Origin: a virus
Lineage: Duplodnaviria; Heunggongvirae; Uroviricota; Caudoviricetes
IMG/VR virus record: IMGVR_UViG_2695420763_000014
Direction: 5' to 3' (one strand)
DNA: 32,361 nt
Shown here: positions 1 through 32,361 of the stretch, in pieces
How positions within the stretch are numbered: position 1 is the stretch's first letter
Layout of the letters: every line of letters starts with the position of its first letter
Made by a program: the position numbers and the translations under genes
The notes under the pieces: model-generated
What the model was told of the DNA's origin: nothing
The model's input: the letters and a program-made list of their open reading frames with translations, nothing else
Databases searched by the model: none

Positions 1-237
1 ATGATGTCTATAAATGAAGTTGTTAAACAGGACTGGCACCCCGCGCATGTTGTCGCGGCGGTGCATGTAAAAGGTTTTACTTTACGCTCTCTGTCCATTG
101 AAGCCGGTTTAAACCAGGATTCTTTAAAGAATGCCCTGTACCGCAAATGCCCAAAATATGAGCGCATTATTGCTGATGCTATTGGTGTTGCGCCGGAGGA
201 GATCTGGCCCAGTCGTTACGCTCGTAAGGTGGCATAA
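1..237 (+). CDS. ner: Ner-like DNA-binding protein (early transcription regulator)
   Basis: 78 aa ORF directly upstream of the transposase; C-terminal ...EEIWPSRYA resembles the Mu Ner tail (…EVIWPSRYQ) as I recall it; overall divergent from Mu Ner. Confidence 0.7.
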   Translation: MMSINEVVKQDWHPAHVVAAVHVKGFTLRSLSIEAGLNQDSLKNALYRKCPKYERIIADAIGVAPEEIWPSRYARKVA

Positions 238-239
238 AA

Positions 240-2333
240 ATGTTTGTGTCAGTTAATGAGCTTGTAGGGCTACCAGGTATGCCGGGAACTGCGCAAGGGG
301 TGCGGTATTCCATAAGGAAACTGGCCTCATCTGAGCATTTCAGGCGCAAACGTGCGGGTTCAAAAACCATTGAATACAGCATCGACTGCCTCCCTCCGGT
401 TACACAGCGGGCGTTACGTGAGCGCCATGTAGCTCAACTGATGGCAACCGCCCCGCAGGAGATAACTACCCAGCCTCCTGTAAAGCGTGAACGCAAACAA
501 AATGTTGTACAGCCTGTTGAGGCATATCGCGGTTCGCCACAATTGGTAGAAGAACGTCTGAATGCTCTTACGGAAAATCAACGTAAAGTTGCAGAAGCGC
601 GCATTGCTCTTGTCTGTGAAGTTCTACGAATTAGCCAGGAGCCGGGATTCAGTTGTGCCAGCGCTATACGTTTTATTGTGTCGCGGTTAGCGCAGGGTAA
701 CCTGGAAGAACGCCTGGAATCTTTGGTCATTACTGCTAATGCCCGTAAAGGGAAAGAGCGAACTCTGAGCGCAATTACGCTCAAACGTTGGATAGCTGCG
801 TTTAACAAAGCACAGAATGCCGCAGAACGACTGCTGTTACTGGCACCAGGAAAGCGCGACGAAATAAAACCGGAAGAAATTAGCTGGCTACCTGAATTTC
901 TGGCGCAGTATCGTCAGGCTAACGGCAGGCCTATGTCAGAAGCCTACGAGGATTTTGTTGCTGATTGGCAGCGTCGCCATGCGGACGAACCATACATGCT
1001 GGAGGTGATGCCTTCCTATGATGTTGTCCGGTATGCCATGAAAAAACTGCCGGAAGTGGTGAAACAAAAAGGGCGCGTTACCGGCAGTGAATACCGTCAG
1101 CTTGAAGGATTCACCCGCCGCGACTGGACAGCTATGCCGGTGAATTATGTCTGGATTGGTGACGGTCACGGTATGAAGCTGAAATGTGCACATCCTGTTC
1201 ACGGGCGTCCATTTTCACCGGAAGTTACGTTTGTGATCGACGGTGGAACCCGGTTTGTGGTTGGCTGGAGTCTTGATCTTGCGGAGAACGTGTTCGCTGT
1301 TGCCGGGGCAATACAACACGGCATTCGCAATCACGGAAAACCATTCCTGTATTACTCGGATAATGGTTCCGGTGAAACAGCAGATATGCTGGATAAAGAG
1401 ATCGTCGGGATTCTGCCCCGCCTGGGGATTAACCACCCTACCGGTATTGCGGGAAATCCGCAGGGACGCGGCATTATTGAGCGCCTGAACCGGACGTTAC
1501 CGATGCGTATAGCAAGGAGGTATCGCACCTATTTCGGCAAGGGGGCTGACCGGGAGTCGTTGCGAGTACTTAATCGTGATCTGCGTTCAGCGTTTAATGC
1601 CCTGCAACAGGACAAGCCACTGAGCGCCCGTCAGAAAGCCGCAATGCGCGAGCTGCCGTCCTGGTCAGAACTGATTGAGGCTATCCGTGAGGGGGTGGAG
1701 TGGTACAACAACCGCCCACATTCTGAATTGCCGATGAAACCAAATGGAAAACATTACAGCCCGGCAGAGTTCAGAAAAAAACGCTTAGCGGAAGAAGACA
1801 CTGAAATTGAGTGGCTGAGTGATATTGAGCTGCGTGACATGTTCCGCCCGATGGTGGAGCGTCCGGTAAGACGCTGCGAAATCCAGTGGCTGAACAATAT
1901 TTACTACGCGCCAGAGCTGCGTGATGAACATGGCCGCAAGGTACTTATCAGCTATGACATTCATGATGCCGAGCGAATTACGGTACGCCGTAAGGACGGT
2001 AGCTTTATCTGTGAGGCGATATGGAACGGCAATAAACGCGCAGCCTTTCCTGTTACGGCTGAATATCACAAACAACAGCAGCGTATTAAAGGAATGCGCA
2101 AGCGTGCTGAGGAAAAAATACGTGATGCTGAGGATGAAGGTATTCAGGTTATTGAACAAAAAACGACAGAACCCTGGCTGGATAATGTTTATCGCCCTGT
2201 TGGTAATGTGGTGACCGTTCAGCCGTTGAGGTGTGAGGAAGTGCATGATGATGAATACGAAACTGAGCGTGATGAATATCTGAATCATTCGCTGGATATT
2301 CTGGAACAGAACAGACGTAAAAAAGCCATTTAA
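240..2333 (+). CDS. A: MuA-family DDE transposase, divergent from Mu A except the C-terminal 28 aa
   Basis: 697 aa; SD aaggtgg 8 nt upstream. N-terminus LPGMPGTAQGVRY resembles Mu A domain I-alpha. Candidate DDE triad D308 (WIGDG), D374 (YYSDNG), E414 (IERLN), with D-D spacing 66 vs 67 in Mu A (D269/D336/E392). Ends ...DDEYETERDEYLNHSLDILEQNRRKKAI, the Mu A MuB/ClpX-interaction tail. Confidence 0.93.
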   Translation: MFVSVNELVGLPGMPGTAQGVRYSIRKLASSEHFRRKRAGSKTIEYSIDCLPPVTQRALRERHVAQLMATAPQEITTQPPVKRERKQNVVQPVEAYRGSPQLVEERLNALTENQRKVAEARIALVCEVLRISQEPGFSCASAIRFIVSRLAQGNLEERLESLVITANARKGKERTLSAITLKRWIAAFNKAQNAAERLLLLAPGKRDEIKPEEISWLPEFLAQYRQANGRPMSEAYEDFVADWQRRHADEPYMLEVMPSYDVVRYAMKKLPEVVKQKGRVTGSEYRQLEGFTRRDWTAMPVNYVWIGDGHGMKLKCAHPVHGRPFSPEVTFVIDGGTRFVVGWSLDLAENVFAVAGAIQHGIRNHGKPFLYYSDNGSGETADMLDKEIVGILPRLGINHPTGIAGNPQGRGIIERLNRTLPMRIARRYRTYFGKGADRESLRVLNRDLRSAFNALQQDKPLSARQKAAMRELPSWSELIEAIREGVEWYNNRPHSELPMKPNGKHYSPAEFRKKRLAEEDTEIEWLSDIELRDMFRPMVERPVRRCEIQWLNNIYYAPELRDEHGRKVLISYDIHDAERITVRRKDGSFICEAIWNGNKRAAFPVTAEYHKQQQRIKGMRKRAEEKIRDAEDEGIQVIEQKTTEPWLDNVYRPVGNVVTVQPLRCEEVHDDEYETERDEYLNHSLDILEQNRRKKAI

Positions 2334-2371
2334 TTAACGTTTAAACAAAATTTAATTACGAGGTTATTCAG

Positions 2372-3310
2372 ATGAATATTTCCGATATTCGCGCAGGACT
2401 GCGCACGCTTGTAGAAAATGAAGAAACCACCTTTAAACAAATTGCTCTTGAGAGCGGACTTTCTACCGGAACTATCAGTAGTTTTATCAATGATAAGTAC
2501 AACGGGGATAACGAGCGTGTTTCACAAATGCTGCAACGCTGGCTGGAAAAATATCATGCAGTTGCAGAACTACCTGAACCGCCCCGCTTTGTGGAAACGC
2601 AGACGGTAAAACAAATCTGGACAAGTATGCGTTTTGCCAGCCTGACTGAAAGTATTGCTGTTGTATGTGGCAATCCTGGTGTGGGCAAAACCGAAGCGGC
2701 CCGTGAATATCGCCGCACCAATAACAATGTCTGGATGATCACCATTACGCCATCCTGTGCCAGCGTTCTGGAATGTCTTACTGAACTGGCGTTTGAGCTG
2801 GGAATGAATGACGCACCACGCCGTAAAGGGCCACTCTCCCGTGCCCTGCGACGTCGCCTTGAAGGTACACAGGGGCTGGTTATCATCGACGAAGCTGATC
2901 ATCTTGGTGCCGAAGTTCTGGAAGAACTCCGCCTGTTACAGGAATCAACCCGCACTGGCCTTGTGCTGATGGGAAATCACCGGGTTTATTCAAATATGAC
3001 GGGGGGTAACAGAACGGTTGAATTTGCCCGTCTGTTTTCCCGTATTGCAAAGCGCACTGCAATTAATAAAACCAAAAAAGCCGATGTAAAAGCTATTGCG
3101 GATGCCTGGCAGATTAACGGCGAAAATGAACTGGAGTTATTACAGCAGATTGCGCAGAAACCAGGTGCGCTTCGCATTCTGAATCATTCACTTCGCCTTG
3201 CAGCCATGACGGCTCACGGTAAAGGTGAGCGTGTTAACGAAGATTATCTGCGTCAGGCTTTCCGTGAATTAGACCTGGACGTTGATATTTCAACGCTGCT
3301 GCGTAATTAA
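2372..3310 (+). CDS. B: MuB ATP-dependent target DNA activator
   Basis: 312 aa, same length as Mu B; Walker A GNPGVGKT with the lysine at residue 106 as in Mu B; Walker B VIIDEAD; immediately downstream of the transposase. Confidence 0.93.
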   Translation: MNISDIRAGLRTLVENEETTFKQIALESGLSTGTISSFINDKYNGDNERVSQMLQRWLEKYHAVAELPEPPRFVETQTVKQIWTSMRFASLTESIAVVCGNPGVGKTEAAREYRRTNNNVWMITITPSCASVLECLTELAFELGMNDAPRRKGPLSRALRRRLEGTQGLVIIDEADHLGAEVLEELRLLQESTRTGLVLMGNHRVYSNMTGGNRTVEFARLFSRIAKRTAINKTKKADVKAIADAWQINGENELELLQQIAQKPGALRILNHSLRLAAMTAHGKGERVNEDYLRQAFRELDLDVDISTLLRN

Positions 3311-29151: not shown

Positions 29152-30234
29152 ATGGCTTATTCACCACCGACATTATCATCGCTGATTGCCCGTACAGAAC
29201 AGAATATTGAACAGCGCCTGCCGGGTAGCTGGCCTCAGGCCCGTGAAAAAACGCTGAGTGCCATTGCTTACGCCCAGGCAGGGCTTGCTGCCGGTTGTCA
29301 CGAGCATATTTCATGGGTTGGGCGGCAGATTATCCCGTCGACAGCAGATGAAGATGAGTTGCTGGAGCACTGCCGGTTCTGGGGCGTGCGCCGCAAACAG
29401 GCGACAGCCGCCAGCGGCCCGCTGACTGTCACCACATCGGCAGCGACCACCATTCCTGCCGGTACACGCTGGCAGCGTGCTGATGGTGTGGTTTACAGCC
29501 TGGCTGATGCCATTGTGATTGACCATGCAGGAACGACGGAAATTACCGTTACCGCACTGGCTGCCGGTGAGGCAGGAAATACCGGTGAGAATACCCTTTT
29601 AACGTTGATCACCCCGGTTGCCTGTGTTGTTTCCGATGCCATCACTGTAAAAGGGTTTTCCGGTGGAGCTGATATTGAGAGTGCAGCGGAGCTGCTGTCA
29701 CGGCTGGAATATCGTGTCCAGTATCCTCCGTTCGGCGGTAATCAGTTTGATTACGTTCGCTGGGCACGTGAAGTCAGCGGCGTTACCCGTGCCTGGTGTT
29801 TTCCGACATGGAAAGGCGGTGGCACAGTCGGGGTGACGTTTGTTATGGATAACCGGAGCAATATTTTTCCACAACCGGCAGACGTGGAACGCGTGGCGGA
29901 TTATATCGCCGGTCATACAGACCCGATAACCGGCCTGATTGTCGGACGGCCTGACGGTGTAAATGTCACTGTATTTGCGCCAAAGGCAAAGCCGGTAAAT
30001 CCACGGATTTATATATCACCGAAGACAGCCGAACTGAAACAGGCTATTACTCACGCCATTAATACCATGTTTTTTAATGAGGTGACGCCGGGCGGCGCAC
30101 TTGCCCCCTCCCGTATTATCCGTGCGGTGGCAGGTGTTACCGGTCTGGATGATTTTGAAGTGCGTTTCCCGACAGAGATCCAGCGTTCGGAGAATACGGA
30201 ACTGTTAACACCGGGGACAATTGAATGGCTGTAA
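29152..30234 (+). CDS. baseplate wedge protein, J-like (Mu R / gp47 position)
   Basis: 360 aa; starts right after the W stop; synteny. Confidence 0.65.
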   Translation: MAYSPPTLSSLIARTEQNIEQRLPGSWPQAREKTLSAIAYAQAGLAAGCHEHISWVGRQIIPSTADEDELLEHCRFWGVRRKQATAASGPLTVTTSAATTIPAGTRWQRADGVVYSLADAIVIDHAGTTEITVTALAAGEAGNTGENTLLTLITPVACVVSDAITVKGFSGGADIESAAELLSRLEYRVQYPPFGGNQFDYVRWAREVSGVTRAWCFPTWKGGGTVGVTFVMDNRSNIFPQPADVERVADYIAGHTDPITGLIVGRPDGVNVTVFAPKAKPVNPRIYISPKTAELKQAITHAINTMFFNEVTPGGALAPSRIIRAVAGVTGLDDFEVRFPTEIQRSENTELLTPGTIEWL

Positions 30235-30767
30235 CACCCTATCAGACGGCCTTTCTGCAATTACTGCCGTCAGGGCTTGCCTGGAATAAAAGCCCCGACA
30301 GCAAATTATCTGCGCTGGCGCAGGCCATCAGCGACGTGATTGCCACTGCGGCGGATGATGCGCGGCAAATGCTGCGGGAGCGTTTCCCGTCCACATCCCG
30401 CTGGTATCTGGGTGAGTGGGAATCATTTCTGGGGTTGCCGGACTGTACCAGCGAAAACGGCACCCTGTCAGAACGCCAGCGGGCTGCCGCAAATAAAATG
30501 CGTATGACCGGCAATCTGAGTCGGCGCTTTTATGAATGGCTGGCTGCGCAGTACGGTTTTACCGTCAGGCTGACGGATTCCACAGAAGGCCAGTGGGTTA
30601 CGCAGGTCAATATTTACGGTATTAAAAATTATCGCAACGCAACGGTGCTGGATAATGTTCTGACGCCGTTACGTGTTTATGAATCGGGTGCGCTGGAATG
30701 TTTACTGGAGAAATATAAACCCGCGCATCAGATTTATAAATTTGTTTACCATGACGGAGATAACTAA
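30225..30767 (+). CDS. baseplate wedge / tail fibre attachment protein (Mu gp48 position)
   Basis: 180 aa; overlaps neighbours; precedes the tail fibre. Confidence 0.6.
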   Translation: MAVTPYQTAFLQLLPSGLAWNKSPDSKLSALAQAISDVIATAADDARQMLRERFPSTSRWYLGEWESFLGLPDCTSENGTLSERQRAAANKMRMTGNLSRRFYEWLAAQYGFTVRLTDSTEGQWVTQVNIYGIKNYRNATVLDNVLTPLRVYESGALECLLEKYKPAHQIYKFVYHDGDN

Positions 30768-32233
30768 TGTTTTATATTGATAACGACAGCGGCGTAACCG
30801 TCATGCCGCCCGTATCCGCCCAGCGTAGTGCTATCGTTCGCTGGTTTTCAGAAGGTAACGGGAATAATGTTATCACATGGCCCGGCATGGACTGGTTTAA
30901 TATTGTGCAGGCGGAGTTATTAAACACGCTGGAAGAAGCCGGTATTCAACCGGATAAAACAAAATTAAACCAGCTTGCACTGTCCATTAAAGCCATTATG
31001 AGCAATAACGCGCTGCTGATAAAAAATAACCTCAGCGAAATTAAAACTGCCGGGGCATCAGCACAGCGTACAGCACGTGAAAATCTGGATATCTATGATG
31101 CCAGCCTGAACAAAAAAGGACTCGTTCAGCTAACCAGTGCCACTGACAGCCCCAGTGAAACGCTGGCAGCCACCGCAAAAGCGGTGAAAATTGCGATGGA
31201 TAATGCTAATGCCCGTCTGGCAAAAGACCGGAACGGAGCAGATATTCCCAATAAGCCGCTGTTTATCCAAAACCTCGGTTTACAGGAAACGGTAAATCAG
31301 GCTTCTGGCGCATTACAGAAAAACCAGAACGGTGCAGATATTCCGAATAAAGATAAATTCGTACAAAACACAGGGGCCTGTCGTGCATTTAGCGGTCAGA
31401 CTGATATCGATGGTTCACAAGGTGAATGGTCGACAGTTGCATTTATCTCGTGGCTGGAGAATAACGGAGCTTTCCGACATCCATACTGGATGTGTAAAGG
31501 GTCATGGTCCTATGCCAGAAACAGGGTTATTACGGATACCGGTTGTGGAAATATCTGCCTTGCCGGAGCCGTGATTGAGGTTATGGGAACCCGCGGCGCA
31601 ATGACCATACGCGTTACCACGCCGGGTACGTCCAGTGGTGGCGGAATTACTAACGCTCAATTCACTTATATTAATCATGGTGATGCTTATGCTCCTGGCT
31701 GGCGACGAGACTACAACACGAAAAACCAGCAGCCTGCATTTGCTTTAGGGCAAACAGGAAGCACTGTCGGAAATGATAAAGCTGTTGGCTGGAACTGGAA
31801 TAGCGGGGTCTATGAGGCAAATATTGGTGGCGCATCGACATTAATCCTCCATTTCAATATGAATGTGGGGAGCTGCCCTGCTGTACAGTTCCGCGTGAAT
31901 TACAGAAATGGCGGTATCTTTTATCGTTCAGCGCGTGATGATTATGGCTTTGAAGCTGACTGGTCAGAGTTTTACACCACAACCCGCAAACCTTCTGCGG
32001 GAGACGTTGGTGCATATACGCGGGCAGAATGTAACTCAATGTTTATTACAGGTATTCGCCTTGGCGGTCTGTTATCTGTTCAGACATGGAATGGTCCCGG
32101 CTGGTCTGACAGGTCAGGTTATGTCGTTACGGGTTCAGTTAACGAAAACCGTGATGAATTAATTGATATAACTCAGGCAAGGCCAATTCAGTATTGCATT
32201 AATGGAACGTGGTATAACGCGGGGAGTATTTAA
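30767..32233 (+). CDS. S: tail fibre protein S (constant part Sc fused to a variable part Sv from the G segment)
   Basis: 488 aa; SD ggag upstream; a gix recombination site lies inside the gene at 31263-31288, so codons before it are the constant part and codons after it are invertible-segment encoded. Confidence 0.8.
31231..31350 (+). repeat. 24-bp direct repeat (2 mismatches) flanking the gix site inside S
   Basis: gaacggagcagatattcccaataa (31231-31254) and gaacggtgcagatattccgaataa (31327-31350); both encode the peptide NGADIPNK. Confidence 0.75.
31263..31288. other. gix site (Gin invertase crossover site, left boundary of the invertible G segment)
   Basis: TTATCCAAAACCTCGGTTTACAGGAA: 26-bp imperfect palindrome that matches the Mu gix / Hin hix-family site as I recall it (compare hixL TTCTTGAAAACCAAGGTTTTTGATAA). 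Confidence 0.8.
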
Positions 32234-32235
32234 TT

Positions 32236-32361
32236 ATGATGCACTTAAAAAATATTACTGCTGGCAATCCTAAAACAAAAGAGCAATACCAGCTAACGAA
32301 ACAATTTAACATCAAATGGCTTTATACAGAGGATGGGAAACGCATTTGCCCGTCAGCGTGA
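32236..32361 (+). CDS. U: tail fibre assembly protein U, N-terminal 41 codons ending at an in-frame TGA at the window edge
   Basis: ATG 3 nt after the S stop; translated by hand as [41 protein letters not shown] then TGA at 32359-32361. The Mu U position is a protein I recall as about 175 aa, so this looks truncated, but the downstream sequence is not visible. Confidence 0.45.

Follow-up and report, generated by a model that had tools for sequence, protein, structure and literature searches.

Gene content and chromosomal location of the prophage

The window (the whole stretch of DNA analyzed here, 32,361 nucleotides) was found to equal bases 170331-202691 of the 724-kb record CYCV01000001.1 (GCA_001286025.1), an assembly for which a literature search returned no paper. 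The record was located by an exact protein look-up with S. Over the 25.4 kb compared, the window and the record displayed 0 mismatches in the 13,773 bases on the left and 1 difference in the 11,595 bases on the right; this sole difference is at window position 32340, which is an A in the window and an N in the record (position 202670). The window starts at the ATG of a gene encoding a Ner-like protein, ends at a TGA, and is a Mu/SfMu-like prophage inserted in yehI of Escherichia coli. The gene order of Mu was found to be kept, from ner, A, and B via the tail genes to gin-com-mom. The early region (window 1-3310) encodes a Ner of 78 aa and a transposase of 697 aa with a weak match to HTH_Tnp_Mu_1, while a repressor of 181 aa with no Pfam match is encoded upstream. 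The repressor, Ner, and the 697-aa transposase set this early region apart from that of Mu, and the transposase was detected in hundreds of assemblies, at many chromosomal sites, and paired with several repressor types. Look-ups with the transposase and with B led to other strains because both proteins are widespread, while a 70-aa early protein, which is rarer, led to the left flank of this prophage.

The 5′ part of yehI was located directly left of the repressor end of the prophage (attL), and the 3′ part of yehI was found to adjoin the mom end (attR). When joined, these flanks aligned to an intact yehI in more than 5200 genomes, which indicates a single insertion in this gene. The same insertion in yehI was detected in 0 of 5426 closed E. 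coli genomes. The prophage ends were called by comparison with other insertions, with the left end (L022 5479) reading TATAGAGAGG... and the right end (L003 7055) reading ...GCGCGCTTTA; as called, these termini differ from the TG...CA of Mu. Under these calls, the joined flanks carry a 4-nt excess (CACA), giving a target duplication of 4 nt and not 5, and the right terminus is regarded as a candidate.

A gix crossover site within the tail fiber gene S

The features at the right end of the window are as follows (all on the + strand, apart from the gap, which has none).

30225..30767, gene for the gp48 baseplate wedge protein, immediately before S
30767..32233, S, tail fiber gene, an ORF of 488 aa with a Pfam Phage_fiber_2 match
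30767 to about 31262, Sc, the constant part of S, with an S′-type variable part after the site
31263..31288, gixL, 26-bp Gin crossover site, with half-sites TTATCCAAAACC and GGTTTACAGGAA flanking the core TC
31263..31296, 34-bp stretch common to all gix contexts, consisting of the site plus ACGGTAAA
31275..31276, central dinucleotide TC in codon 170 (Leu), the probable strand-exchange point as judged from the Mu annotation
31289..32233, Sv(A), variable tip of the Mu S′ type, inside the invertible segment
32236..32339, first 104 nt of a U′-type tail fiber assembly gene, identical to L003 11470-11573
32340..32340, scaffold gap, given as N in the record but as A in the window
32341..32361, stretch from within the host gene dusC, 21 nt found exactly in 4284 E. 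coli genomes

The 26-mer TTATCCAAAACCTCGGTTTACAGGAA was detected as an exact match at window positions 31263-31288 on the + strand, and was present as a single copy when both strands were scanned with up to 3 mismatches allowed. All 26 bases were identical to Mu gixL and to Mu gixR. In the Mu record AF083977, this 26-mer is found at both annotated boundaries of the G segment (L024 6264-6289 on the + strand and L024 9322-9347 on the − strand), and the base annotated as the G boundary is base 13 of the 26-mer, the first base of the core. As in Mu gix, the 26-mer is composed of two imperfect 12-bp inverted half-sites and a 2-bp core, with the middle two bases of the inverted repeat described as the position of crossover (PMC4406740). 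The surrounding 34-bp stretch is equivalent to the 34-bp inverted repeat of Mu, as revealed by alignment of the three junction contexts of the scaffold with the gixL and gixR contexts of Mu. Within S, the site lies in frame at the constant/variable boundary, in agreement with the boundary annotated for Mu, and reads TTT ATC CAA AAC CTC GGT TTA CAG GAA (F I Q N L G L Q E). The site begins at the second base of codon 166 and, thus, the preliminary description was right to place it at about this codon. Its remaining statements on the site, namely that an exact gix lies at these positions and that it marks the constant/variable boundary of S and the left end of the G segment, are borne out by the uniqueness of the match and its identity to both Mu sites, by the Mu annotation, and by the comparison of S with Mu S and S′ (below).

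An alternative reading is that the 26-mer is a chance match, or conserved coding sequence of S that has no role as a site. The 26-mer is translated within S, so conservation at the protein level helps to preserve it; however, 0 of 100 dinucleotide-preserving shuffles yielded a match to the 26-mer with up to 3 mismatches allowed (chance expectation 0), the similarity to the S of Mu G(+) ends just past the site with the opposite G end following in reverse, and an inverted copy of the site and gin are present in the same genome. We consider this reading to be exceedingly improbable. Each sequence feature of Mu gix that was examined was found, and on sequence grounds the 26-mer is Mu gix, the gixL of the invertible G segment. 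The element itself is already known, and what is found here is one more copy of the Mu host-range switch in a new prophage. Separately, a direct repeat encoding NGADIPNK was observed on either side of gix, at 31232-31255 in Sc and 31328-31351 in Sv(A).

Orientation of the switch in the window

The window S was 92.2% identical to Mu S′ (Sc plus S′v) across its 488 aa, whereas its match to Mu S was restricted to the first 186 aa. The window was about 99% identical to Mu and D108 across gp47, gp48, and early S, with this identity ending about 15 bases past the site (window 31301-31303, query position 1302-1304); beyond this point, the window matched the other end of the Mu G segment, reversed compared with the Mu G(+) reference. 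The gene starting at 32236 was found to be of the U′ type. Since S matches Mu S′ over its full length and is followed by a U′-type gene, the switch in the window is, as read from its sequence, in a state equivalent to Mu G(−), with an S′/U′-type tip. The preliminary description had held that the orientation could not be judged from the window; it can be read from the window, as Sc is joined to an S′-type tip and then to a U′-type chaperone gene. While the Mu reference record is G(+), the deposited sequences of SfMu and of a closed relative (NZ_CM132302.1) share the state of the window.

The right end of the window

The last bases of the window were found to be of different origin from the rest. 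None of the Mu-like records matched the window past 32340; the tail region of SfMu (KP010268) was collinear at 93.5%, and closed E. coli prophages matched at up to 98%, in both cases up to 32340 only. Downstream of the window end, the open reading frame was found to match positions 123-310 of Pfam Dus. Thus, the earlier statement that the window ends within the invertible segment was correct up to 32339, which is inside the U′ gene, but not for the bases that follow, with 32340 being an N and 32341-32361 being host dusC. The prophage sequence ends at 32339; the 22 bases that follow are made up of an assembly gap and part of an unrelated host gene, and the end of the window is not biological.

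This junction also accounts for a 41-aa ORF at 32236-32361 that is composed of 35 codons of U′ followed by RICPSA and a stop, with the dusC fragment supplying a false end. The deposited record lists a 41-aa gene at the equivalent position, with the N within its codon 35. An exact protein look-up with the window translation of this ORF gave no match, and neither did an exact search of viral_contigs and genome_contigs with the 36-nt junction of U and dusC. Since nucleotide 104 of U meets dusC only through a single-N gap, the 41-codon ‘U’ ORF, an apparent U-DusC fusion, is an artifact. For curation, this means that a scaffold gap turned into a base was sufficient to produce both the last 22 bases and the 41-codon ORF.

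The remainder of the switch is located elsewhere on the same scaffold

The window itself was found to lack a partner site and an invertase gene. In the deposited order, the 10 kb past S carry dusC, yohP, and mdtQ through bglX, and no gix-like site was detected within these 10 kb. As had been anticipated in the preliminary description, the partner site, gin, and the genes for the alternative fiber and its chaperone lie beyond the window; they were found 31-36 kb away on the same scaffold. The parts recovered there included the remaining part of U′, the other U/Sv cassette, an inverted copy of gix with one mismatch, gin, com, and mom, which are located behind two further single-N joins at L003 9799 and 15149 (record positions 233657 and 239007). 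The main features are as follows.

L003 8065-8658, gin, 197 aa, with Pfam Resolvase and HTH_7 matches, starting 54 bp from the site
L003 8713-8738, gin-proximal gix with 1 mismatch (C to T at position 6), TTATCTAAAACCTCGGTTTACAGGAA
L003 11470-12003, U(A), complete copy of 177 aa, 96.6% identical to Mu U′, Pfam Caudo_TAP
L003 12561-14114, − strand, S(B), alternative fiber of 517 aa
L003 13593-13618, inverted, exact copy of gix

The encoded Gin was 98.4% identical to Mu Gin and has kept Ser9, while at the DNA level gin differed from Mu gin by 21 mismatches in about 580 nt. Within L003 10523-13592, the pairs Sv(A)-U(A) and U(B)-Sv(B) face each other, and both U genes matched Caudo_TAP. S(B) shares its first 194 aa with Mu S (Sc plus a few residues) and was 48% identical to it over the last 68 aa or so; its tip is otherwise unlike that of Mu S, and is also unlike the SfMu cassette in that position. 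The U(B) chaperone was 91% identical to Mu U.

Scaffold pieces and reconstruction of the prophage

The scaffold was found to contain three single-N joins, with no sequence across any of them, and as deposited it reads P1-N-P2-N-P3-N-P4. Gaps of one N are a typical product of read-pair scaffolding with subsequent gap filling. The pieces are as follows.

P1, all sequence up to nucleotide 104 of U(A)
P2, record 202671-233656, 31.0 kb; the host part runs from a dusC-internal point through 808 bp (‘X’) and yohP through bglX to yehL and the 3′ part of yehI; the prophage part holds the right end, mom, com, gin, the one-mismatch gix, Sv(B), and the first 27 nt or so of U(B)
P3, L003 9800-15148 (record 233658-239006), 5.3 kb; begins with the final 205 bp of gp48, followed by Sc, gix, Sv(A), and U(A), and continues in the opposite orientation with U(B), Sv(B), gix, Sc, gp48, and a portion of gp47
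P4, a second copy of X and the remainder of an intact dusC, followed by yohJ, yohK, and cdd

P3 is a hairpin-type contig that has Sc at either end and single Ns on both sides and, therefore, S is present twice and Sc three times in the scaffold. When the pieces were placed in the order P1, P3, P2 reversed, and P4, their ends overlapped by 1777, 1086, and 808 bp at 99.9-100% identity. Joined in this manner, the pieces gave 36,042 bp from ner to the right end with an intact G segment of 3.1 kb, and the overlap tiling restored the wild-type host gene order. In this reconstruction, gixL is at 31263-31288 and an inverted gixR at 34359-34384 (3122 bp end to end), a distance that assumes that the single-N joins are misjoins. 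Beyond gixR by 54 bp, gin starts, followed by com and mom. The reconstruction was collinear with SfMu and with the closed E. coli relative, in which the same layout is present with the inverted gix and gin downstream, and in which both gix sites are the same as here, with C to T at position 6 of the gin-proximal one. It had been proposed earlier that the lack of an inverted copy within about 3 kb downstream, together with the lack of an invertase gene, would speak against the site. Taken literally, both are lacking in the deposited order, a result that hinges on a single-N join, whereas the overlap reconstruction has the inverted gix at 3.1 kb with gin adjoining.

Two repeats were noted in the host DNA. 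The 808 bp (the 3′ part of dusC and the yohP-dusC spacer) were found duplicated in inverted orientation at 100% identity (L002 11575-12382 and L003 15150-15957), with both copies beginning at a single N; the very GC-rich end of the spacer (GGCCAATCGCCGCCGCCCCCTGCACCCCCGG) may have caused the original contig break. In addition, an inverted repeat of 491 bp at 89.6% identity, unrelated to gix, was observed between yehL and the next gene (L003 4336-4826 and 4944-5434).

Misoriented scaffold piece versus chromosomal inversion

The arrangement of the pieces could reflect either an error in scaffolding or the true structure of the chromosome. If the deposited order were real, a 31-kb block spanning from the gin end via the 3′ part of yehI to dusC would be inverted between the interior of the G segment and dusC and flanked at each end by an inverted duplication (gp47 to U on one side and the 808 bp of dusC on the other), and the gix of the window would lie beside a truncated G segment, 31 kb from gin. 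Several observations are in line with this reading, including (i) the deposited order itself, P1-N-P2-N-P3-N-P4; (ii) the read-pair links that scaffolders normally need for their joins; (iii) the K-12 orientation of both outer flanks, with the inner block (P2) alone being inverted; and (iv) the dusC end of the block, which has no invertible element likely to confuse an assembler. Against it, all three joins are single Ns with no spanning sequence, every piece end runs on as normal prophage or wild-type host DNA, and the ends overlap by 808-1777 bp in the alternative order. The breakpoints are away from the Mu ends and from gix, and no gix-like site was found near dusC. Moreover, the scaffold contains dusC and the yohP-dusC junction, each in intact form, P3 is the hairpin-type contig expected from a culture with mixed G orientation, and the closed relative has the simple layout. 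We regard a genuine inversion of this block as unlikely and its specific form, a duplication-inversion-duplication involving the 31 kb from mid-G segment to dusC, as slightly more doubtful still. Were the deposited order real, gixL would be parted from gin and from its partner site, and the chromosome would carry three gix sites, with recombination between pairs of them able to flip or delete tens of kilobases.

Two routes by which such a block might have been inverted were considered and rejected. Mu-type replicative transposition did not fit, as the breakpoints are inside U and gp47 and the host DNA is duplicated over 808 bp and not 5 bp. Gin-mediated inversion using a pseudo-gix in dusC was likewise set aside; neither a site with up to 9 mismatches nor an AACCnnGGTT core was detected near either dusC breakpoint.

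A scaffolding error is much more likely than a real inversion because (i) the odd joins are all Ns, with piece ends that continue normally and overlap in a simple order; (ii) the breakpoints are neither prophage ends nor gix sites, and dusC has no gix-like site nearby; and (iii) an intact dusC exists and the trouble is centered on an element known in two orientations. Most probably, the neighboring pieces form one intact prophage, with one 31-kb piece placed in the wrong orientation; this reconstruction rests on overlaps between scaffold pieces, not on reads. Overall, we are confident in a composite reading, in which a Mu/SfMu-like prophage in E. coli yehI carries the gixL of the G segment in the window, its pieces make up one intact prophage, and the 31-kb piece was misoriented by the scaffolder. 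It would be misleading to take the deposited record as showing truncation of the G segment, a fusion between U and DusC, or an inversion in the chromosome.

Evidence for inversion in the sequenced culture

Of the four gix junctions that are possible, three were found in the assembly: P1 and P3 both contain Sc-gix-Sv(A), P3 also contains Sc-gix-Sv(B), and P2 contains gin-gix*-Sv(B). A fixed orientation would leave two junctions, not three. The presence of three junctions thus suggests that both orientations were present in the sequenced culture, and an active Gin in that culture is also suggested. The C/T marker at position 6 of the site was in every case linked to the outer flank, which is what exchange at the core predicts. 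In principle, the Sc-Sv(B) junction could be an assembler chimera formed through the shared stretch, with 28 nt being identical in all gix contexts.

By near-identity to the parts of Mu, a Gin dimer (a serine recombinase) would be expected to bind each of the two inverted gix sites, and the dimers would synapse with the help of Fis and an enhancer. Both duplexes would then be cut at the central dinucleotide TC through Ser9, half of the complex would turn by 180 degrees, and the strands would be religated with the segment of about 3.1 kb flipped. These steps are patterned on the Mu system, in which Gin dimers on each gix are activated by Fis and act by Ser9 cleavage, a 180-degree half rotation, and religation (PMC3575834). 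Since gix lies in the reading frame of S, codons 1 to about 169, which make up the constant part, may be followed by Sv(A), in which case the chaperone is U(A), or by Sv(B), in which case it is U(B). The swap would change the receptor-binding tip and in turn the host range, as described for the inversion that exchanges S/U for S′/U′ and so alters host range (PMC4406740).

It is also conceivable that gix is genuine by sequence but that the switch is frozen, owing to the gin-proximal mismatch, a silent gin, or a defective enhancer, with the site persisting as a relic that encodes part of S. The gin-proximal site does differ at position 6, and for SfMu no difference in host range was observed between lysates from induction and from infection, which led its authors to suggest impaired inversion (PMC4406740). 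The mismatch suspected by those authors is, however, a different one, next to the core (PMC4406740): SfMu gixL (L001 5264-5289) has G for C at position 12, a change not found in the window site, which is canonical. The two SfMu sites differ at two positions, namely position 12 of gixL and the C-to-T at position 6 of the gin-proximal site. Because the C-to-T variant is carried by both SfMu and the closed E. coli relative, it is common to the relatives and not a recent lesion. In addition, the assembly contains Sv(B) in two junctions, one with Sc and one with the gin flank, and Gin has its near-identity to Mu Gin (98.4%), Ser9, and both domains. A frozen switch is, thus, an improbable explanation.

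Relationship to known inversion systems

The closest comparisons were with Mu and with SfMu-like prophages. Mu (AF083977 / NC_000929) shares with this prophage the same 26-bp site, 34-bp repeat, and position in S, as well as the gene order gp48-S-U, inverted U′-S′v, and gin-com-mom; Sv(A) and U(A) were 92% and 97% identical to S′ and U′, respectively. The window is in the state opposite to the Mu record. Apart from the early region and the gin-proximal C to T, the prophage differs from Mu in Sv(B), which is unlike Mu Sv except at its ends. SfMu and SfMu-like E. coli prophages (e.g., NZ_CM132302.1) were collinear over the tail and G regions at 93-98%, and had the same S′-type tip orientation, the same C-to-T in the gin-proximal site, and a 197-aa Gin that was 99% identical; the differences were in Sv(B), which departs from the SfMu S′v cassette, in the C-to-G change of SfMu gixL, which is lacking here, and in the insertion site in yehI.

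More distant relatives include the other switches of the Din family, i.e., the C segment of P1 (cix/Cin), the H segment of Salmonella (hix/Hin), and the P segment of e14 (pix/Pin), which have in common 26-bp sites with 12-bp inverted half-sites and a 2-bp core, a serine invertase, and Fis plus an enhancer. The P1 and e14 switches likewise swap the C-termini of tail fibers, whereas Hin controls flagellin expression and not fibers. The sites of P1, Hin, and e14 differ in sequence from gix, while the window site is gix itself. With regard to the variable tip, the fiber DNA of the P1-like phage D6 was found to be 96% identical to Sv(A).
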